IMG/VR virus record: IMGVR_UViG_3300015608_002795
Coordinates: 64,001 to 109,311 of that record
From: a virus
Taxonomy: Duplodnaviria; Heunggongvirae; Uroviricota; Caudoviricetes
Strand: one strand, 5' to 3'
Length of the DNA stretch: 45,311 bases
Below are positions 16,920 through 42,301 of the stretch, in pieces. The translations under genes and the position numbers were made by a program. Under the pieces are notes generated by a model that was not told where the DNA came from, ran no database searches, and worked only from the letters and a program-made list of their open reading frames with translations. Each line of letters starts with the position of its first letter. Position 1 is the first letter of the stretch.

Positions 16920-17798
16920 ATGTCAATAAAAGTAGCCTTCGCAGATTTTTGGGGTGGGTTTAACTATAATCCAGATATAAATGTTAATAGTAAAGAGATG
17001 TATTATGGGGATAATACATTATATGACATTCTATCCGAAAGGTATGATATAGAAACTTCTACCAACCCAGATGTTTTAATCTACAGCGTTTTTGGAAATT
17101 CACATACACAATATAGTTGTAAAAAGGTATTTTATACTGGAGAAAATATGAGACCTAATTACAACCAATGTGATTACTCATTGACATTTGATTATCTAGA
17201 TGATGAAAGAAACTATAGATTCCCACTATCAGCAATTACCTTATATGAGTCTGGTATAAGAGATAAGTTTCCAAAAGAAATTGATTTTGATAAAATAAAA
17301 AAAGAAAAGACAAAGTTCTGCAATTTTGTATTTTCAAATCCAAATGCACAATTAAGAAATCAACTATTTTATGAATTATCAAAATATAAGCAAGTTGATT
17401 CTGGTGGACGAGCACTTAATAATATTGGGTATGCCGTTAGTGATAAATTAGAATTTATTAACAATTATAAATTTACCATTTGCTTTGAAAATAGTGAATA
17501 TCCAGGATATACAACTGAAAAATTAGTGCATCCTAAGTTAAAAAATAGTATTCCTATATATTGGGGAAATCCAAGAGTTGGTGAGGATTGGAATACAAAG
17601 TCATTTATCAATGCTTATGATTTTAAAGATATCAACTCTCTCATTGATTATATTAAAGAGGTAGATAATGATGATAATTTATATGAGAATATTTTAAAGG
17701 AAAGTCATTTTTTAGATGATAAATTACCACATGATTTAGATACTAATAATTTATTAGATTTTTTTGAAAAAATATTTAAAAATGAAAAAAAGCATTGA
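16920..17798 (+). CDS. GT10 alpha-1,3/4-fucosyltransferase-like
   Basis: FYTGEN, KFCNFVFSNP, VDSGG, YKFTICFENS..PGYTTEK, IPIYWG. Confidence 0.92.
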   Translation: MSIKVAFADFWGGFNYNPDINVNSKEMYYGDNTLYDILSERYDIETSTNPDVLIYSVFGNSHTQYSCKKVFYTGENMRPNYNQCDYSLTFDYLDDERNYRFPLSAITLYESGIRDKFPKEIDFDKIKKEKTKFCNFVFSNPNAQLRNQLFYELSKYKQVDSGGRALNNIGYAVSDKLEFINNYKFTICFENSEYPGYTTEKLVHPKLKNSIPIYWGNPRVGEDWNTKSFINAYDFKDINSLIDYIKEVDNDDNLYENILKESHFLDDKLPHDLDTNNLLDFFEKIFKNEKKH

Positions 17799-17910
17799 AG
17801 ATAAATTAATGGAGATTCTTTCTGAAGAACTATCAGCAAGCATTGATAGGGAAATAATGAAGGGGTTGATCCCTTCTATAAGAAAGGAAAAAATTAAAAA
17901 TGTAATTAAA
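17782..17910 (+). CDS. 42-aa micro-protein (not in ORF track) with a gp23 major-capsid-like helix and a C-terminal RKEKIKK tag
   Basis: Manual translation: MKKSIEDKLMEILSEELSASIDREIMKGLIPSIRKEKIKKCN*. The ATG overlaps the GT10 end, and the ORF fills the gap up to the convergent gene. Confidence 0.65.
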
Positions 17911-17914
17911 AAGA

Positions 17915-18514
17915 TTAAATCTTCTGAATGATTCTTGGAACGGTTTCAAGTTCCATTACTTTAGATTTATTAAGTAAAAATTCAATTTGTACAAAGTTAA
18001 ATTTAAAGGTTAACGTAAATTCTTTAGGATTAACTTTTTGTTGTGAGTAATCAAAATTAACCTCGCTTAGTGATAGAGCGATAATTTCAAAAAATTTAAT
18101 TACATAAATAGCATCACGATGTATATCAACAGCAGTTATTGTAAATGGATTAATATACATGTTAATAACATCTAAATAGTGCTTCTGAAAGATATCAAAT
18201 ACTAACCAATAATTTAAGTCAGAATCAACTGATCTAAAAGTAACTTGAAACTCTCTGGTAGAAACAATATCATTAACGTTTGTAGCAGGTTTATAAGACC
18301 TTTTTTTACCTCGTATTAAAGATTGCTCAGGTGTTTGAATACTAAGTCCTGGGAAATTAACAGATTTAATTGTAGAGTTAATATAATCAATTACGTTCTC
18401 ATACTGCACCCAATTCTTTTCTAGAATTGGAGTATAGGTGTTAATAATTTCCTGGGGTAAGAAATCACTTGGTAGATTAAATATAAACTGCGACGATTGA
18501 CTCGATAACCTCAT
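17915..18514 (-). CDS. T4 gp3-like tail tube terminator/tail completion protein (tail-tube fold)
   Basis: SVNFPGLS..TP, FQVTF..DSDLNY, SLSEVNFDYS and FTLTFKFN resemble the gp3 family; lies in a late operon. Confidence 0.6.
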   Translation of the reverse strand: MRLSSQSSQFIFNLPSDFLPQEIINTYTPILEKNWVQYENVIDYINSTIKSVNFPGLSIQTPEQSLIRGKKRSYKPATNVNDIVSTREFQVTFRSVDSDLNYWLVFDIFQKHYLDVINMYINPFTITAVDIHRDAIYVIKFFEIIALSLSEVNFDYSQQKVNPKEFTLTFKFNFVQIEFLLNKSKVMELETVPRIIQKI

Positions 18515-18516
18515 TT

Positions 18517-20370
18517 TTAAACAATATTTTGATTTGTATCAGCAGTAATAGTTACAAAGGAGGCTGTTGATCCTGTGTCACTAACAATAGTTGTGACTGT
18601 CTTCCTTGTTACAACTGCAGTTTCAGATGCTAATACATCTTGGTTTCCAGCAAATGGGAAATCACTACCTGGTACTAAATTTTGCTGGTCTATAGATTGA
18701 GCTTGATTTAATTCACCAACATTATCTAATGAGTCATATATTTTATATAATCCACTATAAATTACACTGGATGTGTTTTGTTGAGTGGATATTATATAGA
18801 ACACATTAACACCAGAATCATATATTCTTCTAACATCATTAATTTTACCAGATACTAATTTAAATACTAAAAATCCTTTTGATAAATCTATTTCTCCTGA
18901 CTCGGAAAATAAAGTTGCTTCTGTAGATATATTTTGATTTTTGATCACCAATTTAATCTCACCCATGTTTGTTAAATCCATGTATTCAATTTTACCTTCA
19001 GATATTTGATTTGCTAAAATAAATTTGATAACATTATCAAATGGATAAATGGTTATCATGATTTTACCTATTCCAAAAAATGTAGTGCTATTAACTGTAG
19101 AGTTTTCTGATTTTGCAACAATGTTATATTTATCAATTAATACTGGATATGGAACCTTAATAGTCTCAACGACCAGGTTGTTGGTGCTTTGGTTGTTAGT
19201 TGGTGTCGTACTTATACTATTTTTTAGGTTGTATATTTTTGGTTTATTTGCATTGGTTAAATTAATCTTCATTAATTGGAGACTATATTTTGAAACCTGA
19301 TCCTGCAACATACCATAAGATGCCCTTCTTGTTATTTGTGACATATCTACCGCATCTATTAAGTTCATTTCTATATCTATAATAGCAGTTGTAGTTGAAT
19401 ATTTTATAATAGGTCTGTATTCTACTTTGGTTAGAAAGTCATCAGTAACAACAATTTTCATTGACTTACCTCGAATATTTTGTTCATACATAGTTATATT
19501 ATATTCTACATAATATCGATTTCCATTATATACGGATCTATTCATGAAGTCATTAAAATCTCCGATGTTATCATTATAAACACCATATATTTCAAAAAAA
19601 TCACCATTGATAGATTCTGCTACTCTAACACCAATTTTTTCAAATTCCGGTGACTGTGGTATTGTTATCGTATTTTTGGTATTTAGTGTATAAGTTGTTA
19701 CAGAATTGACTGTGCTTTTACTCGTTATAAATTGAAAGTCTAAAAATATTGGTGAATTTAGATCAAATCCAACCCCAGATGTTAGGTTATAGTTTATCGT
19801 ATTATCCTTTATGACACCATTTGTTCTTTGATTTGCCAACGCATATAATGATGGTATTTCAATAGATATTTGTTTACCCCACAATTTTTCTTGAAAGAAA
19901 AGTGGGGGATTAGTATATCCCATTATATCCTTATTTGGTTCAGTTCCTACTTGGTCTAGATTTGTTATATCATAATAAAAATTAGATAAATCATAGGTCT
20001 TTCTAAGTGTTACATCAAATGCATAAACTCTTAAGTAATATCCTAGATATTCACCGAATGTGTAGTTTATCGGAAGGTGAACTTTTATAATATCATGTCT
20101 GATAGGAAATCCACTTGCAAAATCTTTAACCTGTAAGAAAGAATACAAAGAGGTATCAAATTTACCATAAGTATTATTAACCAAATCAATTGGAAATAAC
20201 GTGTTTAAAGATGTGTTTAATGTGCCACTAACATCATTTGCTATGTAGTTGTAGTTACCATTCTTTATATTAACACCAACTTTATATGATTCTCCTATTA
20301 AATTACCGTCATCATATATGTACTCAATTAATATATTTTTATCTACCTTAATGTATTTAGATATCCTCAT
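18517..20370 (-). CDS. Hypothetical 617-aa beta-rich protein, probably virion structural
   Basis: Long ORF directly behind a late-type promoter and co-oriented 2 nt upstream of the gp3-like gene; no recognised motif. Confidence 0.5.
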   Translation of the reverse strand: MRISKYIKVDKNILIEYIYDDGNLIGESYKVGVNIKNGNYNYIANDVSGTLNTSLNTLFPIDLVNNTYGKFDTSLYSFLQVKDFASGFPIRHDIIKVHLPINYTFGEYLGYYLRVYAFDVTLRKTYDLSNFYYDITNLDQVGTEPNKDIMGYTNPPLFFQEKLWGKQISIEIPSLYALANQRTNGVIKDNTINYNLTSGVGFDLNSPIFLDFQFITSKSTVNSVTTYTLNTKNTITIPQSPEFEKIGVRVAESINGDFFEIYGVYNDNIGDFNDFMNRSVYNGNRYYVEYNITMYEQNIRGKSMKIVVTDDFLTKVEYRPIIKYSTTTAIIDIEMNLIDAVDMSQITRRASYGMLQDQVSKYSLQLMKINLTNANKPKIYNLKNSISTTPTNNQSTNNLVVETIKVPYPVLIDKYNIVAKSENSTVNSTTFFGIGKIMITIYPFDNVIKFILANQISEGKIEYMDLTNMGEIKLVIKNQNISTEATLFSESGEIDLSKGFLVFKLVSGKINDVRRIYDSGVNVFYIISTQQNTSSVIYSGLYKIYDSLDNVGELNQAQSIDQQNLVPGSDFPFAGNQDVLASETAVVTRKTVTTIVSDTGSTASFVTITADTNQNIV

Positions 20371-20393
20371 CTTAGTGGGTTAATATTTAGTAG

Positions 20394-20402
20394 TATATAT
20401 AA
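20394..20402 (-). promoter_or_regulatory. Putative late promoter TTATATATA
   Basis: T(A/T)ATATATA motif 23 nt upstream of the ATG at 20370. Confidence 0.5.
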
Positions 20403-20440
20403 AAAATAAAAACCTTTCGTATGAAAGGTTTTTATTTTTT
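20401..20440. terminator. Intrinsic terminator (perfect 18-bp inverted repeat, 4-nt loop)
   Basis: aaaaaataaaaacctttc-gtat-gaaaggtttttatttttt at the end of the 20439..20813 gene, with U-tracts on both strands. Confidence 0.85.
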
Positions 20441-20813
20441 ATATTCGTCTTTGTACTTCTATTTTTATTTCATCATCTGATAGTGACGGATATCTTTTTT
20501 TAATTATATTATATAGATCCATTTCTTCTTTCTTTAATTTCTCTATAGATTCATTTACATTATTAATTTTACTGCAGATTTTATCTGATTCGGTTTCTAA
20601 CTCATCTAGTTTTTGTAAAACTCTATCGCGAATGCCTTCAATGGTGTCCATTTTATCAATATTTTTACCTATATCACTTAACTCGGTAGATATTTTTAGA
20701 AAATGTGTAGCCAATTTTCTAACATCATTCTCATATGTTTCTAATGTATCATTGAGGGAGTTAAACTCTCTTTTTATTGACCTAGCACTTTCTATTAAAG
20801 ATTCTTCAATCAT
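20439..20813 (-). CDS. Hypothetical coiled-coil protein
   Basis: Heptad-like E/K/L-rich sequence; ATGA-type overlap with the upstream gene. Confidence 0.6.
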   Translation of the reverse strand: MIEESLIESARSIKREFNSLNDTLETYENDVRKLATHFLKISTELSDIGKNIDKMDTIEGIRDRVLQKLDELETESDKICSKINNVNESIEKLKKEEMDLYNIIKKRYPSLSDDEIKIEVQRRI

Positions 20814-21667
20814 TTAGTTTCTTCTTTTTTTCTAGGAGCTCTTTTCTTTTTGGGAGCACCTTCCGGTAAAACCATTCTGTGTTCTTCTGAAACAGTTGGA
20901 ATTACTCTTACTTCTTTCTTACTTTTATATACTATTTTATTTATTTCCTCCTTAATTTTATCCTTTATAATAGAGGGATTTTCTAAAATTTGTTTTGTAA
21001 ATTCTTCAGATAGATAGTCAATGATACTAACCTCATATGAATCTTCCATCATTTCAATAAAATCTGGTCTAGGAATTTTATTTTCAATATCAAATGTTAT
21101 TTTTAGATCAGTATTCTTTTTGGTATTTTTAAACATTGTTATCATTGGATCTTCTGGTGAAGTATGTGGATTGTTATTTTCCATTGTTGAATTTCGGACA
21201 GGGTATTCTTGTAGTTGAACTGGTTGAGGATGAACTGGCTGATGTTGAGGTGACTGATGTGGCTGAACAACAGGTATATCTTCCTCATCCATTAGGTCTT
21301 TAAACTTCTCTATCTGGCTTTGAGCAGCACTATTTGGATTAGACATTTGCCTAGCCTTTTCCATAAGCATCCGTTTTTCTTCCTCTGGGTCATATTCCAT
21401 TATGGCGGGACCATCATCATCTTTCATAGTATTTAATGCTTCAGTTGGAATTGATTTAATTTTTTCAGCAAGGCTTATTAAGCTTTGTTGACTAAGAAAG
21501 TCTTTCGGGTCAATTTGCTCATCATAGAAATTACTATCTAATAGCCTTTTAACATCAACCCTTTGGTTATTGCTTAAGATAGCAATATTTTCAAACTGAT
21601 CTTTTACTTGGAATGATTCGTTTGATGATAAATCAATAAATCTTCTATTCTTTAGGTTTGGAAACAT
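20810..21667 (-). CDS. Hypothetical protein with a Q/P/H-rich central linker and basic tail
   Basis: QPHQSPQHQPVHPQPVQLQ linker and PKKKRAPRKK C-terminus. Confidence 0.6.
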   Translation of the reverse strand: MFPNLKNRRFIDLSSNESFQVKDQFENIAILSNNQRVDVKRLLDSNFYDEQIDPKDFLSQQSLISLAEKIKSIPTEALNTMKDDDGPAIMEYDPEEEKRMLMEKARQMSNPNSAAQSQIEKFKDLMDEEDIPVVQPHQSPQHQPVHPQPVQLQEYPVRNSTMENNNPHTSPEDPMITMFKNTKKNTDLKITFDIENKIPRPDFIEMMEDSYEVSIIDYLSEEFTKQILENPSIIKDKIKEEINKIVYKSKKEVRVIPTVSEEHRMVLPEGAPKKKRAPRKKEETK

Positions 21668-21720
21668 ATGTTTTTATTTTTTTGTATATCTATACATTGT
21701 TTTTATTCTGTATAGATACA

Positions 21721-21728
21721 AAAGTTTA
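21721..21728 (-). promoter_or_regulatory. Recurring intergenic motif TAAACTTT (possible non-late promoter element)
   Basis: Same octamer lies upstream of infC (41340) and of the 42693 gene (42643). Confidence 0.3.
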
Positions 21729-21734
21729 CTAAAT

Positions 21735-21768
21735 AAAAAAGACACCTATTTTCATAGGTGTCTTTTTT
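21735..21768. terminator. Intrinsic terminator downstream of gp32 (15-bp stem)
   Basis: aaaaaagacacctat-tttc-ataggtgtctttttt. Confidence 0.88.
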
Positions 21769-21789
21769 GGTAGTGGATACACTAATTGA

Positions 21790-24447: not shown

Positions 24448-24738
24448 ATGATTAAAAAATGTAGATGTAAAAGCACAATGTCCGTATGTCAATCTATGTC
24501 AGATGGTGATTGGGAGGACGTTTTTGTTAAAGATAAATGGTATGATGTAAATCATGTTGAATGGTCTAATGATCCAGTACATGATTTAAAAATGCGCAAA
24601 ATAAATGGTGGGTGGAGAGACTACTTAGCTATGACAGAATTTGGAACGTGGAGACAACTGACTAGATCTGATTTTAATATTATATTTTATTCCGATGTGG
24701 AACTAAGAGAAGCTTTAATTAATGATATTCTCTTATAG
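24448..24738 (+). CDS. Hypothetical small protein with C-terminal tag LREALINDIL
   Basis: ORF track; tag shared with other small ORFs. Confidence 0.6.
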   Translation: MIKKCRCKSTMSVCQSMSDGDWEDVFVKDKWYDVNHVEWSNDPVHDLKMRKINGGWRDYLAMTEFGTWRQLTRSDFNIIFYSDVELREALINDILL

Positions 24739-25275
24739 AGAATATTGAACCTTCTCACCATTACTCATTGAATAAACAACCTTATCTATATTTGTAAATT
24801 TCTTTCTATAACCACTTGATAAATACTTATCAGCAGAGCCTGGTTTAACAAAAGCGATTGTCATATGTGGTTGGTAATCTGGATAATCATTTGTGTGTGG
24901 TAATTTTTTCAATTCTTTATTTATTTCGTGTAAGAGAGGGGAATCAACATTTAATTTAACCACACTAAATTTATCATCATCATCAAATTTTCCTATCCCA
25001 TCAATAGAGATGTCAATATCTCTACCCTTAAATTTAGTCAAAACATTCTCAACATCTTCTTTAGTTACGTCAGAATGTAATCCATATAGTAAAGTTATAT
25101 GAGGACTTTTTTCAATTCCATAAGTCGGATCAGATGGTTTATAAACATCATCGATATTTATAATAGATGTTATTTCTTTCCAATTTTCTACCTTTGGATA
25201 TATCATTACACATCCGTATTTGTATAGGTTTCCACTTTTTACATTTTCTAAAAATTCGTCAAATTTTTTAATCAT
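24733..25275 (-). CDS. 2H phosphoesterase (LigT-like), Acb1/T4 gp57B-like
   Basis: Two HxT motifs, PHITLLYG and YPDYQPHMTIAF; THDF.DY.PH.T-like segment of Acb1. Confidence 0.8.
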   Translation of the reverse strand: MIKKFDEFLENVKSGNLYKYGCVMIYPKVENWKEITSIINIDDVYKPSDPTYGIEKSPHITLLYGLHSDVTKEDVENVLTKFKGRDIDISIDGIGKFDDDDKFSVVKLNVDSPLLHEINKELKKLPHTNDYPDYQPHMTIAFVKPGSADKYLSSGYRKKFTNIDKVVYSMSNGEKVQYSL

Positions 25276-26864: not shown

Positions 26865-27464
26865 ATGAATTTATCAAAATTATCTGGCCTTATTCCAGCA
26901 GAAGTAATATCTCAAATTCCATTAGTAATGGAAAAATTTAAAATTAATACCCCTTTAAGATTATCACATTTTTTAGCACAGTGTCTCCATGAATCTGGTG
27001 GCCTAAAATTAGTAAACGAAAACTTAAACTACTCAGCACAAGGATTGGTTTCAACTTTTCCTAAATATTTTACTAAAGAATTAGCCGCAATATACGCCAG
27101 AAATCCTGAAAAAATTGGGTCACGCGTTTATGCAAATAGAATGGGAAATGGTGCTGAATCAACAAAAGAAGGATTTAAATTCAAAGGTAGAGGTTATATT
27201 CAACTAACTGGTAAAGAAAATTATAGAATTTTCTCTACTGAAATAGGAGAAGATTGTGTTGCTAATCCAGATTTAGTTGCAACAAAATACCCCTTGGCGT
27301 CAGCTGCCTGGTTTTTCTCCAGAAACGGACTGAACCAAATATCTGATTTGGGATCAACTATTGATGTTGTTACTAAAGTAAGTAAAAGAGTAAATGGTGG
27401 TAAAAAGGGATTAAATGAAAGGATAGCTTATTTTAATAAGGTATACCCACTATTGATCCAATAA
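26865..27464 (+). CDS. Glycoside hydrolase family 19 endolysin
   Basis: HFLAQCLHESGG, ENLNYS, YANRMGNG, FKGRGYIQLTGKENY, SAAWFF, RVNGG..GL.ER. Confidence 0.93.
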   Translation: MNLSKLSGLIPAEVISQIPLVMEKFKINTPLRLSHFLAQCLHESGGLKLVNENLNYSAQGLVSTFPKYFTKELAAIYARNPEKIGSRVYANRMGNGAESTKEGFKFKGRGYIQLTGKENYRIFSTEIGEDCVANPDLVATKYPLASAAWFFSRNGLNQISDLGSTIDVVTKVSKRVNGGKKGLNERIAYFNKVYPLLIQ

Positions 27465-27989
27465 TAGAATTCTCAACTGTAATTCACGAAGATTTGAAAT
27501 ATAAGAAGGACTATTACTGTTCTTCTTATATTCTATATATTCGTTTAAAAGATTAGTTAATGATTGACTATTAATATCAAATTTCTCATGCTCTAATATC
27601 CTTATAAATTTCCTAATTTCATTATTGGATAAGCAGAAAGATTTATAGTATTTAAATAAATCTTTTGATAAATCAACATCTTTACATAAAGAATTTTTAA
27701 AATGATTAACAAATTTATACGATTCGAGTGATGCCCTCCACTCAGACTGTATAAATAACTTAATGGTCCTTTCGGTGATAGTCAATCCACTATTTAATAA
27801 AAAATCGGTCGTGTTATATTTAAGGTTTCTAACTGCATAATATAACCCATTTTTAGGAACTTCACTGTATCTATTTTCAACGGTTACTTGCAGCAGCGAG
27901 TGATTCTTAGATATCATTTCTCGAAGCAATTCTAACTCACCGTTAGCACAGGTTGATATGTAGGTTTTGTGTAGAGTTTTCCTAGTCAT
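27450..27989 (-). CDS. Hypothetical protein with two ankyrin-like N-terminal repeats and C-terminal tag LRELQLRILL
   Basis: CANGELELLREMI and GLYYAVRNLKYNTTDFLLNSG resemble ankyrin helix pairs. Confidence 0.45.
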   Translation of the reverse strand: MTRKTLHKTYISTCANGELELLREMISKNHSLLQVTVENRYSEVPKNGLYYAVRNLKYNTTDFLLNSGLTITERTIKLFIQSEWRASLESYKFVNHFKNSLCKDVDLSKDLFKYYKSFCLSNNEIRKFIRILEHEKFDINSQSLTNLLNEYIEYKKNSNSPSYISNLRELQLRILLLDQ

Positions 27990-28041: not shown

Positions 28042-28800
28042 ATGGCAGCATACGCATTAGAAGAGGTAATAGATTTTGTTCAAAATGAAATAACCGTTGG
28101 GTGTGCCTTACCAAAGACACTACCAGATACAGAAATAAGAAGGTTTATCGAAACAAGAGCCCTCAAATGGTTTTATCAAAACTATCAATATGGAGTATCT
28201 AAAGTATATTATTTTGTAGATAAAACTGCCTTCACAACAGAAGAGTTTACAAGATATAATTATATAACACTTCCCTGTGAAATACAATCAATACCATTTA
28301 TATATCAGGTTAGAGGAGAGTCTTTACTACAACTAGGTATTAATGTCCCTAATTTGTCTGTAAATATGGGAGTTACAAACCAACCATACTTGTCTTCTTA
28401 TGTAACTACAATTGGTGAATTAGGCGTTTATAAAACATTAATTGATTCATTATCAGATATGATGAATCAGATGAATAAATACACAGTTAAGTATCACTAT
28501 AATCAATTAATGAATAGGTTAAATATTTTAACTGCTGTCCAATATGATTTAGTTTTAGAAACATATGCAAATATTCCTGCTGAAAATATGTATTCAGATC
28601 AATATTTTCTGAAATATGTAACCGGATGGGCTAAAATGCAAACGGGTAACTTACTTGGTAGATATGACTTTACACTTCCAGGTGGAGTGAAGTTTAATTC
28701 TGCTGACTTAGTATCACAAGGCAAAGAAGAAATGAAAGAAGTAGAAGAAGAAATCAAGAATATGAGTCAATCCGCATGGTTTTACATGGTGAAACGCTGA
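28042..28800 (+). CDS. T4 gp13-like neck (head completion) protein
   Basis: YVTGWAKMQTGNLLGRY.FTLPGGVKFN...LVSQGKEEMKEVEEE matches the gp13 C-terminal pattern (K.QWG.NL.K....LPGGV.LNG..I..EA..EI..LEEE). Confidence 0.8.
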   Translation: MAAYALEEVIDFVQNEITVGCALPKTLPDTEIRRFIETRALKWFYQNYQYGVSKVYYFVDKTAFTTEEFTRYNYITLPCEIQSIPFIYQVRGESLLQLGINVPNLSVNMGVTNQPYLSSYVTTIGELGVYKTLIDSLSDMMNQMNKYTVKYHYNQLMNRLNILTAVQYDLVLETYANIPAENMYSDQYFLKYVTGWAKMQTGNLLGRYDFTLPGGVKFNSADLVSQGKEEMKEVEEEIKNMSQSAWFYMVKR

Positions 28801-31269: not shown

Positions 31270-31928
31270 ATAGTAGAGAATCAATAGAAGTTTTGGATAC
31301 AGTATCGGATATACTATTAGAATTAAATGATCAATTTGATATCGAGATAATGTTTGGATATGAAACTGTCCTAAATGTAGAGTCAAATTATAATAAAATT
31401 ATAAGTATTATCAGAGATTTTGAAAAGAATAAGAGAGAAATTCCAAAACTGGAATTTAGAATTATTACAAAAGATGGGATATCATTTAGTAATTTTAGTA
31501 ATGCCTATAATAATAAAGAAAGACCAGGTTATATAAGAAGAAAAAAAATGATAGCAGAGACAGCTTCAACGATTGTTAATAAACTCGATGCAATAAGTAA
31601 TAGAATGTCATCTATTTTAGATAAATATAAAATAAAAATAAATGATATAAAATATGATCAATATCCATTTCTATTAGTCGCCACTTCATTCGGACTTATT
31701 AAGGTGCCATTATTTGAAAAACATCAATTTGAAGAAGATGATATTACCAGGATGAGGAGAAATAACATCTCAATAAAATCATATGAAATAGATAAAGAAA
31801 AAATTGATAATCATAAAGATATACAATTGCTCTATGCTTATGTTCCTTTTGAAATATCAAAGGATAAACCTAAACCTACTAATAAGAAATTCAAGAATAA
31901 AATTAAAAAATTTATTGATTTCCTATGA
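31266..31928 (+). CDS. Hypothetical protein (VSDILLELND motif)
   Basis: ATGA overlap with the upstream gene. Confidence 0.6.
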   Translation: MNSRESIEVLDTVSDILLELNDQFDIEIMFGYETVLNVESNYNKIISIIRDFEKNKREIPKLEFRIITKDGISFSNFSNAYNNKERPGYIRRKKMIAETASTIVNKLDAISNRMSSILDKYKIKINDIKYDQYPFLLVATSFGLIKVPLFEKHQFEEDDITRMRRNNISIKSYEIDKEKIDNHKDIQLLYAYVPFEISKDKPKPTNKKFKNKIKKFIDFL

Positions 31929-32304
31929 TCTCATTTATTTTATTATCTCTCATCCTTTTGTGTGCTTCGCCGTCATATTTAATATAAGCTCCCCTCACAT
32001 ATTTAGTACCATTCATTTCTTGAAATCCATATAAAACATAACAATTAGGAAATGGATCAGATTTTATAGACTCTAAAGTGGATGTATTACATGATATTGA
32101 CCTTGAAAAAGCTTTATCATCTTCTATGTAGTATTGTATAAACGTTGGCTGGTTGGTAAAATACCTCAGTGATGGTAGTTCAGATAAATATTTTATATAC
32201 TTATCATCTTCTCCTATAAACCTTTGCTTTAATATATCATATTTTTCAATAGAGCTAATAGGTAGTTCAACTAAATGATTATTCATATTTATCTTATTTT
32301 GCAT
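31912..32304 (-). CDS. Hypothetical protein with C-terminal tag MRDNKINEII
   Basis: ORF track; last gene of the minus-strand run. Confidence 0.6.
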   Translation of the reverse strand: MQNKINMNNHLVELPISSIEKYDILKQRFIGEDDKYIKYLSELPSLRYFTNQPTFIQYYIEDDKAFSRSISCNTSTLESIKSDPFPNCYVLYGFQEMNGTKYVRGAYIKYDGEAHKRMRDNKINEIIGNQ

Positions 32305-34584: not shown

Positions 34585-35625
34585 TTATAATACATCTCTA
34601 AGTTTCTCAAAAGCTTTCCTTTGATCACTGGTTATAATTTTCGGTATCTTAACATTAAGCTTAACATTTAAATCGCCATATCCATAAATATTACCATTTT
34701 GTGATAAGTTTGGAACTCCTTTTCCCTTTATAACAACCACCTTACCACTTTCACATCCTGCGGGCACTTTAATATTCACCACCCCATTTGGTGTATCAAT
34801 TTGTATATCACTACCTAATACAGCATCTGATATACTTATCCATTCTTCACAATTTAAATTTGTATTTTCTCTTTTAAATTTATCATCTGGTATCTCTTCT
34901 ATGACAATATAAAGATCTCCCGCCTCACCATCTCTTATGAAATTACCATATCCTGGCATAGTTAATTGCATACCACTTAAAGCACCTGCCGGAATTTTAA
35001 TATCAATGGTTTCTTCTTTGTAAACAATTCCTTCTCCGTGACAATCAACACATCTGTTTTTAACAGTTTTTCCTTGTCCGTTACATTCATTACAGGTCAT
35101 CACTTGTTGAATTCGACCGATAGGAGATTCTTGAATGATTACTCTTTGTCCTTTTCCTCCACATGTGTTACAATTTGTTGTATCTGTTCCACCATGTCCA
35201 TTACAAGTGCCACACTTATCATGTCTTTTGTATTTTATTTTTTTATCCGAACCAAAAAGAACTTCAATTAATGTTAGTGAGGTCTTAATTCTTAAGTCAT
35301 TGCCTTTCCTTTGCTTTTGATGTCTTCCGAATCCACCAAATCCACCAAATCCACCGAATAAATCTTCAAATTGTGAGAAAATATCGTTCATATTAAATGA
35401 GTGTGAGTGGAAACTTTGTCCACCAGCTGAACCAAATTGATCGTAATTATTTTTCTTTTGTGGATCAGACAAAACATCATAGGCTTCTGCAAGCTCTTTA
35501 AATTTATCTTCATCGCCTCCTTTATCCGGGTGATGTTCAATTGCCTTTTTTCTGTAAGCTTTTTTTATTTCATCAGGGTTAGCACTCTTGTCTACTCCTA
35601 ATATTTCGTAATAGTTTTTATTCAT
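34585..35625 (-). CDS. dnaJ: DnaJ co-chaperone
   Basis: YYEILGV, HPD, G/F-rich linker and four CxxCxGxG motifs. Confidence 0.95.
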
Positions 35626-35627
35626 AT

Positions 35628-36351: not shown

Positions 36352-36367
36352 TGATCAAAATCTTTTT

Positions 36368-36823: not shown

Positions 36824-36838
36824 AAATAATATTAAAAA

Positions 36839-37732
36839 ATGATTTACAATAAAATATATGACTTTTGTAAAGTAAAAAATAAGGGAAACTGCTTTATGAA
36901 TGGCCCTGAGCCAACACCAAGAGTTAAGTTTATAATGGATCTCTTGGATACAGAGGGTATTGAATATGAATTGGATGTATTCGAGGGTGAGAAAAGAAAG
37001 CCATATAAATTTGAAGATAGTCCAGAAAGAAAAAGAGAAAAAAAGTCCGGTAGACCAGAGAGAAACCCAAAAAGAGGAATGTTTGATTTTCTTACTGATT
37101 TAGGTATTAAGAAGATTGAAGACGATGAACCAGAATTTGTAAATAAATATTTCAATATTATTATGAGAGGTAGCTCAAATAAAATGATAGTTGCCCATCA
37201 TGATATTAATAATCCAAGACCTGATAACGCTAATGATAATTCTTGCTCAGTAATAAATGTTATCGCTACAAAAAAATTAAGACCAGAAATAAATGCTGTC
37301 CTTTTAGATGGTGAAGAATTTGGTGGAATAGGATCTAATCACCTTTCTAAACAAATTAAAGCGGGTGAATTTGGGGTTATTGATTGGGTATTAAACTTTG
37401 AACTAACTGGGAAAGGAGGTAAATATTTCTTTATTGGGGATTATCCTGGTAGATTAAGTGATAAAATAACTGGTAGATTCAATTGTCCAATTGTTCATAC
37501 TCCATTTAATGATTCTGTTATTTTAAGAAGACATGGAATTGACTCTGTTGTTATTAACCCAATACCACCTCTTCCAGATGGTGAAACATCGAGTGTGCAA
37601 GCACCAGATGGTAAATATCTTGATATTAGTATGCTTTACAACTGCCACTCTATGAAAGATTCACTATCTACTATATCAGTAGAAGATATGAAAGAATTTG
37701 TAGAAGAAGTGGTGCTAAAAATTATTGACTAA
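36839..37732 (+). CDS. M28-family Zn metallopeptidase with a charged insertion
   Basis: VAHHD, ANDN.CSV, DGEEFGG.GS, LNFE, HSM.D. Confidence 0.8.
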   Translation: MIYNKIYDFCKVKNKGNCFMNGPEPTPRVKFIMDLLDTEGIEYELDVFEGEKRKPYKFEDSPERKREKKSGRPERNPKRGMFDFLTDLGIKKIEDDEPEFVNKYFNIIMRGSSNKMIVAHHDINNPRPDNANDNSCSVINVIATKKLRPEINAVLLDGEEFGGIGSNHLSKQIKAGEFGVIDWVLNFELTGKGGKYFFIGDYPGRLSDKITGRFNCPIVHTPFNDSVILRRHGIDSVVINPIPPLPDGETSSVQAPDGKYLDISMLYNCHSMKDSLSTISVEDMKEFVEEVVLKIID

Positions 37733-38082
37733 TGGATTACATTGTTTCTAATATTACTACCCGTGGAGAGATTAGAATATCTAATAAGGAAATGGAAGGT
37801 AAATTAATTTATAAGGGTCACCGATTAGGACTGCCGGATGATTTACTTCCTCACATTATTCACTATACTCATGAGAAATTCAGAAACTCTTATTATTTCC
37901 TGGATTATAAGAAATGGAAAGATATTTATAATTTTGAGAAACTCACCCCACAAATGAATAAGTGTTGGTTTAAAGAAACTGATAATAAAAAAGCATTACT
38001 AAATTCTTATAAATTGCTATTAGAAACACTAAAAGAAGAAGTTGGTGATTTTAAAAATATTTATGTAGTTGAGGTAATTTAA
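37732..38082 (+). CDS. Hypothetical protein
   Basis: TAATG coupling to the peptidase gene. Confidence 0.55.
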   Translation: MDYIVSNITTRGEIRISNKEMEGKLIYKGHRLGLPDDLLPHIIHYTHEKFRNSYYFLDYKKWKDIYNFEKLTPQMNKCWFKETDNKKALLNSYKLLLETLKEEVGDFKNIYVVEVI

Positions 38083-38092
38083 TATCTAAAAT

Positions 38093-38101
38093 TAATATAT
38101 A
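38093..38101 (+). promoter_or_regulatory. Putative late promoter TAATATATA
   Basis: 5 nt upstream of ATG 38107. Confidence 0.5.
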
Positions 38102-38106
38102 ATGAT

Positions 38107-38706
38107 ATGAGTAGTAAATTTGATATTTCCGAAGACGATTTTTTAATTTCAAAAAATTCCGTATTAATATTATTAGATCAATTAATTGAAGAATATTCTG
38201 ATTTTACAAATGATGTGTCTCCTAAACATTGGAGAACAACAGGACATCATATAACCGAATTAAAGAAGATGAGGGATGAAATCAAAGATCGTTTGACACC
38301 AATCACTATTGAGGAAAAAGAAATAGATTGGGTTAAAGATGCTAGGAAAAAAGATGATGAAAGTAAGGAGAAAATCGCATCTGATATGGAAACGGTTGAC
38401 CGAATTGAAAATGAGGTAAAATCTGTAAGAAATTATGTAAAAATGAAAAGTTCACAAATGAATAACCATATGGAAACTGTCGATGGTTATTTAAATAAAA
38501 ATAGAATAAAAAAGTTCGAATCGTTTGAAAATAAAATATCACATATTAGTAAACTAAAAGTTGGAGATAAGATCATATATCAAGGATCTAAATGCGAAGT
38601 TTTAACGGAAGATGATTTTTCAATTCGAGTTAAATCACTACAAACCGATAGAGAATTTACAATCAATCAAGGCCAAATAGAAGAAAGTGGATTGAGATTT
38701 GCTTAA
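38107..38706 (+). CDS. Hypothetical late protein with an internal IKKFESFEN motif and a C-terminal SH3/KOW-like module
   Basis: LKVGDKIIYQG..CEVL; repeated METVD. Confidence 0.55.
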   Translation: MSSKFDISEDDFLISKNSVLILLDQLIEEYSDFTNDVSPKHWRTTGHHITELKKMRDEIKDRLTPITIEEKEIDWVKDARKKDDESKEKIASDMETVDRIENEVKSVRNYVKMKSSQMNNHMETVDGYLNKNRIKKFESFENKISHISKLKVGDKIIYQGSKCEVLTEDDFSIRVKSLQTDREFTINQGQIEESGLRFA

Positions 38707-38713
38707 ATTTTAG

Positions 38714-38721
38714 TATATTTG
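38714..38721 (+). promoter_or_regulatory. Bacteroidota-type promoter (TTG at 38692, 19-nt spacer, TATATTTG)
   Basis: Both elements have consensus-like spacing, 14 nt upstream of ATG 38736. Confidence 0.6.
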
Positions 38722-38735
38722 GGCAAAACAATTAA

Positions 38736-39491
38736 ATGAAATACTTAATACAAGACAGCCTATACAAAGAATTTCATGAGGAAAGATTAATTCATACTTT
38801 GAACCGAATGGGTTTAGAATATGAAATGTTTAGCTTGCAATATTTTGTTGATGATATAGAAGTTAAAACAGATAGAACCGATGTAATGGTTTTTGGCGCA
38901 GTTAAGGCTGCCCATCTAGCAAAAAAGTATAAATGGAATCCAGGATCCTTCTATAATGAAAATCATGATTATATCGTTTATTCCAAATATTATAAGGAAA
39001 ATATGTTAAATTGGGATTCTAAGATTCAAAAGGCTTCAGATACAATAGATATAGATGGTCCGTTTTTTGCTCGACCAACTGGAGATACAAAATTATTTAA
39101 GGGTAAGGCATATGAAAATGTAGAAGAGTGGAATAATGACGCGTCTTATTTTTTAACTAATAACCCAAATTCTAAAGATGAATTGATTCAAGTGGATCCA
39201 TTGCAAAATATTTTACAGGAAATTAGATGCTTTATTGTAAAAGGTAAGGTAATTACTGCGTCAATGTATAAACTCGGTAACGTAGTTTTATATAAAGAGT
39301 GTATGGATGATGATATTATAGAATATGCCAATAATATGGCATCCATCTATCAACCAGCTGACGCATTTGTGATGGATATCTGTCGGACAGACAATGGGGT
39401 AAAGATAGTTGAATGTAATTGTATTAATTGTGCAGGATTTTATGACATTGATATGCAAAAATTAATTGTATCTTTAGAGGATAATTTTTAA
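38736..39491 (+). CDS. ATP-grasp protein (DUF4343/R2K-like)
   Basis: FARP....KLFKG, EIRCFIV.GKVITASMY, AFVMDI, KIVECNCINCAGFY. Confidence 0.82.
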   Translation: MKYLIQDSLYKEFHEERLIHTLNRMGLEYEMFSLQYFVDDIEVKTDRTDVMVFGAVKAAHLAKKYKWNPGSFYNENHDYIVYSKYYKENMLNWDSKIQKASDTIDIDGPFFARPTGDTKLFKGKAYENVEEWNNDASYFLTNNPNSKDELIQVDPLQNILQEIRCFIVKGKVITASMYKLGNVVLYKECMDDDIIEYANNMASIYQPADAFVMDICRTDNGVKIVECNCINCAGFYDIDMQKLIVSLEDNF

Positions 39492-39560
39492 CATGGAATT
39501 TTATTATAGAAATAAAAAACTAATAACACCATTTATTAGAGATAAAAAAATAGATATTAT

Positions 39561-40052
39561 ATGTTTATAATGGGCAAAGAGCGTGACTATATTGTTCACG
39601 ATGAAAATAATGTTAAGGGATTTTTTGGAGACTATAGGTTTCTATCAAATTTCCATATGGCACCTGTTTGGTATGAGGGTATATTGTACCCATCAACTGA
39701 ACATGCCTATCAAGCAGCAAAGACACTTGACGAAAGTGTAAGAATGGAATTCTTAGGATTAACTTGTGGTAAAGCTAAGAACAAAGGACAAGAAATTGGA
39801 CTTAGAGATAACTGGGACACCATTAAATATGATGTTATGTTCGCTGTTGTTTTTGATAAATTTTTTAGGCACCAAGATTTAAAAGAATTGCTTTTATCAA
39901 CTGGTGATAAATATTTAGAAGAAACAAATCACTGGGGTGATATTTTTTGGGGCAGATGTGATGATGTCGGGCAAAATAATCTCGGTAAATTATTAATGTG
40001 TGTTAGAAAAATAATTAAAGATAATCCCAATAGAAAAGGATTTATTATATAA
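39561..40052 (+). CDS. NADAR (YbiA-like) N-glycosidase
   Basis: FLSNF, YPSTEHAYQAAK, W..IK..VM.....DKF..H..L...LL.TG...L.E...W.D.FWG, GQNNLGKLLM.VR. Confidence 0.93.
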   Translation: MFIMGKERDYIVHDENNVKGFFGDYRFLSNFHMAPVWYEGILYPSTEHAYQAAKTLDESVRMEFLGLTCGKAKNKGQEIGLRDNWDTIKYDVMFAVVFDKFFRHQDLKELLLSTGDKYLEETNHWGDIFWGRCDDVGQNNLGKLLMCVRKIIKDNPNRKGFII

Positions 40053-40077
40053 CCAATCACTGGGAAGAAGTCTTATT

Positions 40078-40086
40078 TTATATATA
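40078..40086 (+). promoter_or_regulatory. Putative late promoter TTATATATA
   Basis: 4 nt upstream of the homing endonuclease ATG. Confidence 0.5.
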
Positions 40087-40090
40087 GTAT

Positions 40091-40834
40091 ATGATAATAT
40101 ACAAAATAACAAATATAATTAACAAAAAGATATATATTGGACAAACAATTAGAAGTATAGAAGAAAGGTGGAAAAAACATACATGGTTATCTACAAAGAA
40201 AAATAGTAAAATGGCGATAACTCTCGCTATAATAAAATATGGTGAAGAAAACTTTGTAATAGAAAAAATAGATGAGGCATATAATATAGACGAACTAAAT
40301 GAAAAAGAAATATTTTATATTAAAAAATATAAATCAAAATGTCCAAATGGATATAATATTGGAAATGGTGGATTAAATAGAAATCATTCAATTGAAACCA
40401 GGAGAAAAATAGGAGAATCTAATAAAGGAAAAGTTGGATATTATAAAGGACTTAAATTAAGTGACGAACATAGAAAAAATTTATCCATATCACACACCGG
40501 GCACAATATGAAAGAAGAAACAAAAATAAAATTATCAACTATAAATAAACTTAAGAAAATCGATCCTAAAGTTAGAGAGGCGGCGTCAATAAAAAATAGT
40601 AAGATATATCTTTTGGAGAAAGATAATAGTTTATATGTTATAACCAATATGAAGAAATTTGCAATGAGAAATGGACATGATAAATCCAATCTCTCTGAAT
40701 TGGCTAGTGGCAAAAAGGCAACATATAAAGGATTTAAGCTTGTTGAAAATATCGGACTTTTAAAACAGGTTGATAGTATAGAAGAAATTGTGAATAAGTA
40801 TACCACCATATATGAAAATATTATATACCAGTAA
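40091..40834 (+). mobile_element. Free-standing GIY-YIG (Seg-like) homing endonuclease with NUMOD3 repeats
   Basis: IIYKITN..N.KIYIGQT, AI.KYG.ENF, E..YI, GYNI..GG, HS.ETRRKIGESNKG, LSDEHRKNLS. Confidence 0.92.
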
Positions 40835-40847
40835 ATTTCTTTGACAA

Positions 40848-41033
40848 ATGAAAATTTCATCTAAAAAACCTACCGTAGAAGAAGTTTATAAAAAAATGAT
40901 TCTGAACTCTTGTTATGGAAGCACCGGAATCGAACCCATTATAAACTACAAAATACACTATAAAAGAATTATTAGTCCGGGTATAGTTCTTATTAGGAAA
41001 TTTAAAATTAAAAAAATCTTATCTAAGATATGA
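40848..41033 (+). CDS. 61-aa micro-protein carrying PolB motif B (KMILNSCYG) plus tag IRKFKIKKIL
   Basis: ORF track sequence; K-x3-NS-x-YG. Confidence 0.65.
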   Translation: MKISSKKPTVEEVYKKMILNSCYGSTGIEPIINYKIHYKRIISPGIVLIRKFKIKKILSKI

Positions 41034-41203
41034 GTAATAGTTTTTACAACCCAAAAGAAAGAGGTACGATAAAAATTTTACCAATGGATTTCGCTAGTTT
41101 ATATCCATCAAGTTTTAAAAAATATTTTTTTAATCATGTATTATTAAGAAAATCTAAAACTAAAAAGGTATTAAATAAAATATATGACACTGGAAGAAAT
41201 TAA
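41030..41203 (+). CDS. 57-aa micro-protein (not in ORF track) carrying PolB motif A (DFASLYPS) plus tag LRKSKTKKVL
   Basis: Manual translation: MSNSFYNPKERGTIKILPMDFASLYPSSFKKYFFNHVLLRKSKTKKVLNKIYDTGRN*; ATGA overlap with the previous ORF. Confidence 0.7.
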   Translation: MSNSFYNPKERGTIKILPMDFASLYPSSFKKYFFNHVLLRKSKTKKVLNKIYDTGRN

Positions 41204-41342
41204 AAATTTGAAAAAAATTCCGATTAAATTTGTTGATGATCTATATGATAAATTCAAGGTTGATTACTCGATATTGTTTTCAATTGTTACTGATGATATT
41301 TCAATATTGAGAGAACTATTAATAGATGAGATCGTAAATTAA
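41184..41342 (+). CDS. 52-aa micro-protein (not in ORF track) with tag LRELLIDEIV
   Basis: Manual translation: MTLEEIKNLKKIPIKFVDDLYDKFKVDYSILFSIVTDDISILRELLIDEIVN*. Confidence 0.6.
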   Translation: MTLEEIKNLKKIPIKFVDDLYDKFKVDYSILFSIVTDDISILRELLIDEIVN

Positions 41343-41347
41343 ACTTT
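41340..41347 (+). promoter_or_regulatory. Recurring motif TAAACTTT upstream of infC
   Basis: Three intergenic copies in the window. Confidence 0.3.
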
Positions 41348-41373
41348 ATAATAAAAATAAAATAAAATAATAG

Positions 41374-41904
41374 ATGAGTAAACGAATGTTTATCAAACAA
41401 AGAAAACACAAAATTAACAAAGAAATTTTCCCAGCTCCTAAAGTTAGAGTTGTTGGAGAAGGGGTCGAACCACAAATAATGGACACTAGAGATGCTATTG
41501 ATTTAGCATTTTCTATGGATAAAGACTTGATTTTAATAACTGAGAATGCAAATCCTCCCGTTGCTAGAGTTGAAGATTACAATAAGTTTTTATATCAACA
41601 AGAAAAGATGGAAAAAGAGAGGAAGAGAAATTCTGCTAAAATTGAAACTAGAGAAATTCAGTTGAGTGTTAGTATTGCGGATAATGATCTTAAAACAAAA
41701 TCCAAAAAGGCTAGAGAATTCTTAGAAGAAGATAATAAAGTCAAATGTGTTATTCAACTTAAAGGAAGACAAAAAGCTATGCCGGAACAAGGAGAATTAG
41801 TTATGTTGAAATTTGCTAGTTCGCTATCTGATATAGGAGCTCCTGAAACTCTACCTAAACTAGATGGTGGTAGATGGCTTATGATGTTAAAACCTAAGAA
41901 ATAA
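41374..41904 (+). CDS. infC: Translation initiation factor IF-3
   Basis: IN.EI..PKVRVVG, DLILI..NANPPVARV.DY.KFLY, EIQLS..IA.ND...K...A..FL....KVKC.I..KGRQ, P.LDG.R..M.L.P. Confidence 0.95.
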   Translation: MSKRMFIKQRKHKINKEIFPAPKVRVVGEGVEPQIMDTRDAIDLAFSMDKDLILITENANPPVARVEDYNKFLYQQEKMEKERKRNSAKIETREIQLSVSIADNDLKTKSKKAREFLEEDNKVKCVIQLKGRQKAMPEQGELVMLKFASSLSDIGAPETLPKLDGGRWLMMLKPKK

Positions 41905-41905
41905 A

Positions 41906-42301
41906 ATGAAGAAGATATTGAGTAAACTATTTTATCTAACTAATACCACATCAGAACATTTAGAGGCTAATGTTCCCTTAGGATCAAAAATATTAAATGT
42001 CAGTATTGACTATGGTGTTTTAAATGTACTAATTGAATCAAGTGATTCTAGCGACATGGATAAAATGAGTCTTCTTGTTTTTAAATTTGATAGTCGAGAT
42101 GCCCCCGAAATGAGTACACCGAAAGAATATATTTATGTTGGTACTTCATTTGATACCAACCCACAAGTACTCCCTAAAACTAATGGTAATCACTGTCAAT
42201 TCGATTTTTCACTCGGTAAAGTAAATTATCATATTTTTAGAAAAATAAGCTTACAAGAGAAAAGAGATAACCTAATAGAAAGTATTATTGATAAAAAATA
42301 A
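41906..42301 (+). CDS. Hypothetical phage protein with C-terminal tag KRDNLIESII
   Basis: P.G.KILNV and YIYVGT...YHIF resemble a common small phage beta-rich family; tag appended. Confidence 0.6.
   Translation: MKKILSKLFYLTNTTSEHLEANVPLGSKILNVSIDYGVLNVLIESSDSSDMDKMSLLVFKFDSRDAPEMSTPKEYIYVGTSFDTNPQVLPKTNGNHCQFDFSLGKVNYHIFRKISLQEKRDNLIESIIDKK

Follow-up and report, generated by a model that had tools for sequence, protein, structure and literature searches.

The 45,311-nucleotide stretch analyzed here (hereinafter, the window; positions 64,001 to 109,311 of the IMG/VR virus record IMGVR_UViG_3300015608_002795) is the terminal 45-kb part of a virus contig of 109,311 bp, with 29.7% GC and an estimated completeness of 39% (CheckV). 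Many proteins encoded in this contig and in the genomes of related huge phages end in a common peptide tag, which we propose to be an amphipathic alpha-helix, about 12-16 residues long, that is portable and self-contained and has the core phi-R-[D/E/N]-x-[K/R]-[L/I]-x-x-[I/L]-[L/G/I] (phi, a hydrophobic residue). The tag is real, selected at the protein level, modular, conserved among orthologues, attached to one class of genes, variable between lineages and confined to viruses. We infer that it binds a partner; for the more specific proposal, that the tag is a docking handle read by one and the same partner, we consider the balance to be roughly even.

The nearest public relative of the contig is LR756502.1 (642 kb; 73% amino acid identity across an 856-aa protein), which belongs to the >634-kb 'Mahaphage' genomes with Bacteroidetes as the predicted hosts (PMC7162821). 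Against GenBank phages, the window produced no megablast match and, in the distant mode, short matches alone. Genes were called by simple codon bias in the contig (155 genes), LR756502.1 (947), LR745206.1 (935), the 735-kb, 32% GC phage LR756501.1 (985), the 344-kb IMG/VR genome 3300042308_001511 (hereinafter G004; 492) and LR756504.1 (910); a search of IMG/VR for close relatives of the latter found none.

The enrichment of the tag at C-termini is unequivocal. A simple pattern has 22 matches in the 155 proteins of the contig, 18 of which lie within 8 residues of the end, compared to 1.0 expected. To avoid circularity, we trained a 16-position matrix solely on LR756502.1; at a threshold of 10 bits, this matrix recognized 15 of the 155 C-termini of the contig and a single N-terminus, against expectations of 0.1, 0.06 and 0.08 from internal windows, shuffled proteins and shuffled tails, respectively. 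The distribution of the matrix scores on the contig is bimodal, and the C-terminal enrichment exceeds 100-fold over the internal, shuffled and N-terminal controls. Moreover, LR756501.1, a phage of similar composition, yields 1 match vs 1.2 expected, so the motif is not created by an AT-rich composition. The initial annotation had considered that the K/I/L-rich background of an AT-rich genome might suffice to produce such tails; the control comparisons, together with LR756501.1, show an enrichment well beyond that background.

The codon usage in the tag indicates that selection acts on the peptide rather than on a DNA element, because the codons vary synonymously: the conserved arginine is encoded by AGA in 13 cases, AGG in 3, CGT in 2 and CGC in 1, and the codons at the conserved positions track the genome-wide synonymous usage. 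This variation rules out a promoter, terminator or coupling signal embedded in the gene end. The ends of tagged genes differ mildly from those of other genes in stop-codon use and in the overlap with the next gene (ATGA overlap, 24% vs 12%). The reversed DNA pattern has 0 matches, compared to 19-27.

The tag is a modular feature that is carried by unrelated protein bodies and conserved among orthologues. A set of 132 tagged proteins, from 49 to 622 aa long (median, 111), falls into 126 clusters when the bodies are compared by BLAST, and the few domains that can be recognized, including DUF1281_C, DUF6011, DUF2158 and zinc ribbons, are scattered and different, in full agreement with the initial description of the bodies as unrelated. 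Scanning these proteins against Pfam identified 5 families and against PHROGs 14 families, with one member each, along with 9 weak single matches to NCBIfam; no Pfam-A, PHROGs or NCBIfam model covers the tag region itself in any of the 132. The tag is almost absent from proteins with recognizable enzymatic or structural domains, as the initial annotation had it. Protein families, one of which is a paralogous group of 28 members, are either all tagged or all untagged, and among the homologues of the LR756502.1 tagged proteins, the tag is retained in 51 of 54 in LR745206.1 and in all 19 in G004. Furthermore, the identity is higher in the tag than in the body (0.55 vs 0.38, p=1e-6).

In one case, the origin of the tag can be traced. 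The 148 homologues in the DUF1281/Api92-like family share the body up to the signature ...WGYDP.DY, but only the approximately 30 closest ones (>=44% identity) run on into R-D-x-x-I-D-x-[IV]-[IL], with 3-9 residues beyond the tag helix, whereas the others have unrelated acidic tails. Because only these nearest relatives possess the tag, it must have been added to a pre-existing protein, at least in this family. The suggestion in the initial annotation that new cargos arise by fusion to the tag is accordingly borne out for the DUF1281/Api92-like proteins; its extension to fragments of essential proteins is not, given that these fragments have a distinct class of tails (see below).

When the genome-wide share of tagged genes is estimated with a looser pattern that allows D/E/N/Q/K at position +1 (counted from the conserved arginine at 0), it amounts to 11% in this contig, 15.8% in LR756502.1, 15.1% in LR745206.1, 20.3% in G004 and 7.3% in LR756504.1, compared to 0.1% in LR756501.1 (the 1 match for 1.2 expected). 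Tagged genes often form tandem arrays, with 22 genes within 15 kb in one case and 19 within 11 kb in another. A search of IMG/VR with a degenerate nucleotide pattern that encodes R-D-x-K-[LI]-x-x-[LI]-G-I and a stop codon retrieved 93 stretches, nearly all of which are true ends of open reading frames (ORFs) amid further tagged ORFs; most come from contigs 80-480 kb long or from pieces of genomes of this kind. Across these stretches, the pattern matches 295 C-terminal and 51 internal sites. The same DNA pattern was found in at least 120 stretches when 596 Gb of genomes from bacteria and archaea were scanned, but among the matches listed, only about six are ORF ends, and several of these occur together at just one locus, on a contig with 22% GC that was binned with a metagenome-assembled genome of Muiribacterium. 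Because the matches in cellular genomes are almost all due to chance and do not fall on ORF ends, we conclude that the tag is virus-specific and clade-wide. A search for small complete phages that would carry the tag but no Clp genes recovered only small contigs that proved to be 7% complete fragments.

Two lineages use different sequences in the same place. In LR756504.1, 45 of the 66 tails have lysine at +1, with the pattern R-K-x-[KR]-I-[DEN]-x-L. In LR756501.1, 43 genes end in D-P-Y-G-E-E-x-W instead of the R-D-x-K tag; the DNA pattern for DPYGEE-x-W has 109 matches in this genome and 0 in four other genomes. Genes with the DPYGEE-x-W motif lie, for example, at record positions 552409-556034 of LR756501.1, and many copies of this motif appear to be internal.

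The tagged genes are distinguished by their expression signals. Many genes are preceded, at a distance of 10-25 nt, by an AT-rich motif of the TAATATATA type that resembles the late promoter of phage T4; it is presumably the late promoter that the initial annotation had in mind when it stated that tagged genes lack this element. The related observation on the contig is that TTTAATATATA, probably the T4-like late promoter of the clade, lies 10-25 nt before many start codons contig-wide, such as upstream of window positions 28042, 36368 and 35628 (-), and also precedes HNH endonuclease genes located between tRNA clusters. We counted TAATATATA within 60 nt upstream of genes, pooling the four genomes with the R-D form of the tag (tag-A), and found it at 3 of 408 C-tagged genes (0.7%) and at 339 of 1949 other genes (17.4%; Fisher test, p=2.9e-26). 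Thus, the claimed absence of the late promoter from tagged genes holds clade-wide, with only these three putative promoters. Host-type TAnnTTTG boxes, in comparison, occur upstream of 12.5% of the C-tagged genes, 10.3% of the other genes and 5.2% of the genes with an N-terminal motif that is described next. The late-type motif is similarly depleted in the variant lineages (1 of 66 R-K tagged genes vs 16 of 46 in LR756504.1, and 3 of 42 DPYGEE tagged genes vs 18 of 60 in LR756501.1), and because the promoter contrast is the same, the three C-terminal tags mark equivalent, non-late classes of genes.

The reverse association is seen for an N-terminal motif of the MK[YH]LK.[YF].xFE type, which is present in 34-76 proteins per genome in all lineages examined; in the window, it is represented by the gene 24733-25275 (-), the product of which begins with MIKKFDEF... 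In the pooled genomes, TAATATATA precedes 84 of the 172 N-tagged genes (48.8%), significantly more than the other genes (p=3.9e-19) or the C-tagged genes (p=2.8e-48). Both tags on the same protein were observed once in LR756502.1, never in LR745206.1, twice in G004 and never in LR756504.1, with 12, 8.9, 6.9 and 3.3 such proteins expected, respectively, that is, 3 in total vs about 31. The C-terminal tag is therefore complementary to the N-terminal label of the late class.

The sequence logo of the 132 tags consists of a hydrophobic residue at -1, R at 0 (invariant by construction), D more often than E (or N) at +1, K more often than R at +3, L/I at +4, N/D/K at +5, I/L/V at +7 and L/G/I at +8, with the stop most commonly at +10. 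Many tags additionally have S/T-x-x-E 4-5 residues upstream and end in -LGI, which could represent a helix N-cap box and a Schellman-type C-cap, respectively. As read from the logo, R0, D1, K3, L4, L7 and L8 would largely share one face of the helix, as would be the case for a recognized surface. In the AlphaFold2 model of the sole carrier with a deep alignment, the DUF1281/Api92-like protein, the tag region is a terminal helix (residues 216-230, predicted local distance difference test, pLDDT, of 83-87) that follows a body with pLDDT of 95-98. Membrane segments were detected in 1 of 114 tagged proteins.

Of the high-scoring tag copies, 82-87% are located no more than 8 residues from the protein end, mostly with 0-1 residue beyond +9. 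Because the remaining 13-18% are internal, a free C-terminus would appear to be favored rather than essential. Internal copies, usually followed by G/D/N, were found in the contig gene 48622-49338 (outside the window) and in about 35 genes of LR745206.1 and G004, which suggests that tagged genes became fused with their downstream neighbors through the loss of the stop codon.

In its modularity, tolerance of position and conservation on diverging, unrelated proteins, the tag behaves as a helical docking motif of the kind known as short linear motifs (SLiMs) or molecular recognition features (MoRFs). Under the model that we favor, the helix would label small, soluble, fast-evolving accessory proteins produced outside the putative late-promoter expression, and one common partner would recognize the hydrophobic face flanked by R, D and K and thereby handle, collectively, over 100 unrelated proteins in each genome. 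The initial annotation had envisaged a genome-wide addressing system in which many cargos dock on one hub: the modular, conserved label of one gene class is in place, but no hub was identified.

The leading candidate for the partner would be the phage's own protein-handling machinery, namely a ClpC-type unfoldase lacking the N-domain, together with ClpP paralogues and DnaK/DnaJ/GrpE; with such a reader, the tag would be either a turnover signal for early proteins or a tether that turns the tagged proteins into adaptors. We regard this identification of the reader, although the best available, as doubtful. The unfoldase is encoded at contig positions 58515-60632, 5.5-3.4 kb before the window, and consists of AAA, AAA_lid_9, a UVR-containing M-domain, AAA_2 and ClpB_D2-small, without the Clp_N domain and with the ClpP-docking loop FGTG[VM]GF. 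The window itself encodes a full-length DnaJ with the J domain, the zinc center and the C-terminal domain (34585..35625, -; Pfam DnaJ, 1.8e-23; DnaJ_CXXCXGXG, 6.6e-13; DnaJ_C, 3.7e-37) and GrpE (43297..43731, +; Pfam GrpE, 4.3e-25). DnaK is found in all four large GenBank genomes, and one to three copies of ClpP are present in LR756502.1, LR745206.1, LR756504.1 and three near-complete tag-bearing IMG/VR genomes. Moreover, only 15 proteins of LR756502.1 have homologues in LR745206.1, G004 and LR756504.1 but none in LR756501.1, and protein-handling genes are suggestively enriched among these: the set includes three ClpP, GrpE, a weak J-domain protein, a 138-aa UVR-motif protein, a CopG-like protein, a PD-(D/E)XK nuclease, two RNA-repair domains and five proteins without a Pfam match. 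A further 160-aa protein of this phyletic set has a sub-threshold Pfam match alone. There are precedents for the involvement of phages with Clp proteins: the small early protein Gp53 of phage SPO1 acts as a ClpC adaptor (PMC6873191), and genes for ClpP, ClpS, ClpA and ClpX have been noted in jumbo phages (PMC7824862).

Several observations weigh against a common partner in general or against the Clp machinery in particular. A short amphipathic helix could act without a common partner. The phyletic profile depends on a single tag-negative genome and follows the phylogeny. A ClpC-like gene, in each case with the UVR motif, is present in 16 further huge-phage records, and because only two of these are tagged, such a gene is insufficient for the presence of the tag; four ClpC-bearing genomes that are 99-100% complete have neither tag variant. 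LR756501.1 possesses an analogous tag but no ClpP and a Clp ATPase of another type (with the N-domain and without the M-domain or the ClpP loop), which disfavors phage ClpP as the general reader of the tags. The 13-18% of internal copies fit poorly with a degron that needs a free carboxylate. The predicted complex of the ClpC-like protein with the 52-aa tagged protein of the window (41184-41339), with a score of 0.00 in a run without controls, speaks neither for nor against the Clp machinery.

Two more specific links to the Clp proteins were considered and rejected. The tag does not appear to mimic the UVR helix of the ClpC M-domain and to co-vary with it (tag-A genomes have LRD, LR756504.1 has LKK): ClpC-like proteins from 14 tag-negative records also contain the UVR motif, and there is a single R-K genome. 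The tag shares only phi-R-D with the UVR motif (F-E-x-A-A-x-L-R-D-x-[IL]-x-x-L), with the hydrophobic spacing shifted by one residue, and none of the tags matched PF02151 (Pfam, E<=0.001). Nor can mimicry of the ClpP-docking [LIV]-G-[FL] loop by the -LGI end be general, given that the frequency of glycine at +8 varies among the genomes from 6 to 62% of the tags and that LR756504.1 has no such tag. Two tagged mini-proteins of LR756502.1, of 71 and 88 aa (L012 and L013; 320919-321134 and 381760-382026), contain a copy of the UVR motif that resembles the M-domain of the phage ClpC-like protein (13/28 identities, E about 3e-7); by virtue of this similarity, they could be regulators or mimics of the M-domain.

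Among the alternatives to a common partner, self-association, whereby the helices of tagged proteins pair or bundle together such that the tags themselves are the 'hub', is unlikely but fares best. A short amphipathic helix with charges flanking a Leu/Ile face is reminiscent of short coiled coils, and in the AlphaFold2 model the terminal helix is apart from the body. However, homodimerization would not call for one and the same sequence in over 100 families from diverged genomes, 2.5-3 helical turns are short for a stable bundle, and indiscriminate hetero-pairing among 100-150 proteins seems costly. Slightly less plausible again is a stabilizer that acts in cis, without any partner, where the capped helix would shield the protein from those host proteases that recognize disordered or non-polar C-termini, or else aid folding. 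The helix N-cap and C-cap features of the motif are classical, and the carriers are small ORFans (median length of 111 aa) with very few homologues, as such a function might predict. Many different sequences could cap a helix, however, and yet R, D/E and K/R are strict at fixed positions; in addition, the lineage-wide switches, from D to K and to DPYGEE-x-W, look like co-evolution with a reader.

The remaining alternatives are progressively less compatible with the data. The tag might be the relic of common ancestry, that is, the only still recognizable part of one small ancestral gene. The frequent tandem arrays and the small paralogous groups, including the one with 28 members, are in line with such an origin, but the bodies vary from 49 to 622 aa, contain different known domains and, in the DUF1281/Api92-like case, belong to a widespread protein to which the tag is clearly a later addition; we therefore consider this scenario improbable. 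Even less probable, in our opinion, is a membrane- or nucleic-acid-targeting amphipathic helix analogous to the C-terminal membrane-targeting helices of MinD and FtsA. The tag is indeed terminal and amphipathic with basic residues, and the R-K subclass is strongly basic, but the main tag is charge-balanced, with an acidic residue at +1 and without the aromatic residues typical of membrane-targeting helices; the near absence of membrane segments from tagged proteins points the same way, although peripheral binding stays compatible with it.

A packaging signal that would load proteins into the capsid for injection has some appeal, because the cargo peptides of encapsulins, which have the same fold as phage capsids, are located at the C-terminus, and huge phages are thought to package many proteins. 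Nevertheless, this is a very improbable role for genes among which only 3 of 408 have a putative late promoter, all the more so as a separate, N-terminal tag resembling the T4 capsid targeting sequence (CTS) is associated with that promoter (84 of 172) and is nearly mutually exclusive with the C-terminal one. Furthermore, the microcompartment shell (bacterial microcompartment, BMC, PF00936) and encapsulin (PF04454) families had no match in five genomes (G000, LR756502.1, LR745206.1, G004 and LR756504.1), a comparison that matched control genomes and applies to phage-encoded shells only. An artefact of AT-rich composition or of an overlapping DNA or RNA element, suggested by the AT-rich codons of all the favored residues, has next to no probability in view of about 0.1 control matches against 15 observed, the tag-free genome of similar composition, the synonymous variation and the failure of the reversed pattern.

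Eight genes of the window had been assigned to the tag in the initial annotation. Seven of the tails were quoted exactly and adjoin the stop codon, but the eighth, that of the gene at 17782, was misread and in reality ends in ...IRKEKIKNVIKKIKSSE; the positions listed with these tails are gene starts rather than tag sites. Five of the genes carry canonical tags scoring 13-20 bits, and the other three belong to a related R-K-x-K-I class. The canonical set opens with a 96-aa protein (24448..24738, +), with the tag ...ELREALINDILL at 24703-24735 (14.3 bits), the LR756502.1 homologue of which has an R-N variant of the tag. On the opposite strand are a 179-aa protein (27450..27989, -), with ...NLRELQLRILLLDQ at 27453-27491 (13.1 bits) and a host-type TAnnTTTG box 12 nt upstream of the gene start, and a 130-aa protein (31912..32304, -), with ...RMRDNKINEIIGNQ at 31915-31953 (13.4 bits). 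The highest scores belong to the 52-aa product of 41184..41342 (+), with ...ILRELLIDEIVN at 41307-41339 (16.8 bits), and to the 131-aa product of 41906..42301 (+), with ...EKRDNLIESIIDKK at 42260-42298 (19.7 bits); for the latter protein, just three homologues, all near-identical, were found in 5.8 billion proteins.

The three remaining ORFs share a basic tail, [IL]-R-K-x-K-I-x-[KN]-[IV]-[LIFW], that also ends 11 micro-proteins (35-79 aa) in LR745206.1 and one in G004. The 61-aa micro-protein encoded at 40848..41033 (+) ends in ...IRKFKIKKILSKI (40992-41030; 8.4 bits) and contains motif B of the family B DNA polymerase (PolB), K-x3-NS-x-YG, with a match to Pfam DNA_pol_B_2 (E=7.5e-4) that is below the curated cut-off. 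Its neighbor, of 57 aa (41030..41203, +), contains the PolB motif A (DFASLYPS) and the tail ...LRKSKTKKVLNKI (41144-41182; -0.9 bits), which is followed by 7 further residues. The 49-aa product of 17782..17931 (+) has its tail, quoted above, at about 17878-17928 (5.0 bits); its weak resemblance to a gp23 capsid helix is not significant (Pfam Gp23, E=0.032).

These R-K micro-proteins are a real, recurrent class rather than carriers of the main tag. Micro-ORFs with PolB motifs were found at 83154-83393, 255010-255237 and 265897-266055 in LR745206.1, 80417-80539 in G004 and 554211-554555 in LR756501.1. Micro-ORFs with a single motif, A or B, are thus found in four lineages, and their tail is in each case of the type used by the respective lineage; for example, the motif B micro-protein of LR756501.1 ends in the DPYGEE tail, and motif A micro-ORFs similar to that at 41030 recur in LR745206.1 and G004. 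In the main PolB of these phages, a protein of about 500 aa, little sequence follows motif A, so that the polymerase is possibly split. A search for a complete PolB type-2 gene to which the PolB-motif micro-ORFs could be traced found none. In the window, these micro-ORFs come after a GIY-YIG/NUMOD3 homing endonuclease (40091-40834).

The surroundings of the tagged genes in the window include, apart from DnaJ and GrpE, the translation initiation factor IF3 (41386-41904) and a ribosome hibernation factor (S30AE/HPF; 42310-42606). The window also encodes an M28 peptidase (36896-37732), an R2K-clade ATP-grasp enzyme (38799-39491), a NADAR domain protein (39561-40052) and adenylosuccinate synthetase (43737-45050), and a microbial-type PARG is located just upstream of it (contig 56158-56922).

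The initial annotation knew of no described function for the tag, and the searchable literature on the motif, on shared C-terminal tags in huge phages and on phage Clp degrons likewise yielded no description. The tag has partial analogues in several known systems. Like the Clp degrons and tethers (the ssrA tag, the C-terminus of MuA and the 'XB' tail of SspB that is read by ClpX), it is a short terminal peptide on unrelated proteins, which in those systems are handled by a single machine; however, the sequences are unrelated, and the tag is a capped helix, partly internal, on 11-20% of the genes. The T4 CTS is another short shared peptide that sends several unrelated phage proteins to one destination, but it is N-terminal, present on late proteins and cleaved by the prohead protease, whereas the tag is C-terminal and on non-late genes, so it is not a CTS of the T4 type.

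The tails that dock on the sliding clamp or pertain to single-stranded DNA-binding proteins (SSB), such as those of T4 gp43, gp55 and gp33 on gp45, the QL[SD]LF peptides and the acidic tails of SSB and T7 gp2.5, are also C-terminal linear motifs directed to one hub, and tags ending in -L-x-x-L-G-I are loosely similar to the Pol IV peptide -QLVLGL, with its ending -L-V-L-G-L. Nevertheless, the tag is a helical R-D-x-K motif, and its carriers are ORFans rather than proteins of replication or transcription and are ten times more numerous; when the logo was compared with the clamp-binding motif (QL[SD]LF / QLxLxL), no Gln or aromatic position was found in it, and no DNA-enzyme domains were found in the carriers. 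The peptides of microcompartments and encapsulins are likewise terminal helices or peptides on unrelated cargo that bind one shell protein, and tag copies such as ILRELLIDEIV presumably resemble the Pdu-type encapsulation helices, but the conserved R-D-x-K is not part of encapsulation or cargo-loading peptides. The ankyrin proteins of poxviruses possess a PRANC/F-box-like C-terminal motif, a fold of approximately 30 residues that interacts with Skp1 and links variable bodies to degradation. This would be the closest conceptual analogue if the tagged proteins are adaptors, although PRANC is eukaryotic and about 30 residues long, whereas the tag is a helix of 12-16 residues.

The tag offers several practical advantages. 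A single tag peptide could be used as bait for the machine that reads all tagged proteins, and the switches between lineages, from D to K at +1 and to DPYGEE-x-W, provide a built-in co-variation test for any candidate reader. Should a protease or a chaperone turn out to read the tag, Bacteroidota-type systems would gain from it a portable degron or tether of natural origin. In metagenomes, the tag can serve as a simple and specific marker of the clade because nearly all viral matches to the pattern are ORF ends, compared to almost none of the cellular matches.

With regard to the biology of these viruses, it is conceivable, though we find it more doubtful than the involvement of the Clp/Hsp70 machinery as such, that the largest phages sort their proteomes by at least two labels, an N-terminal one on late, probably head-packaged proteins and a lineage-specific C-terminal one on 40-150 early effectors per genome. 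These effectors would be plugged into ClpC-ClpP/Hsp70, resulting either in a self-clearing early proteome or in a library of adaptors that hand over host targets for destruction, a natural bacterial version of the proteolysis-targeting chimera ('PROTAC'). Most of the genes of huge phages are ORFans that defy annotation, and a label on 11-20% of the genes sorts hundreds of them into one functional class, which is non-late, soluble and probably involved in host takeover or anti-defence.

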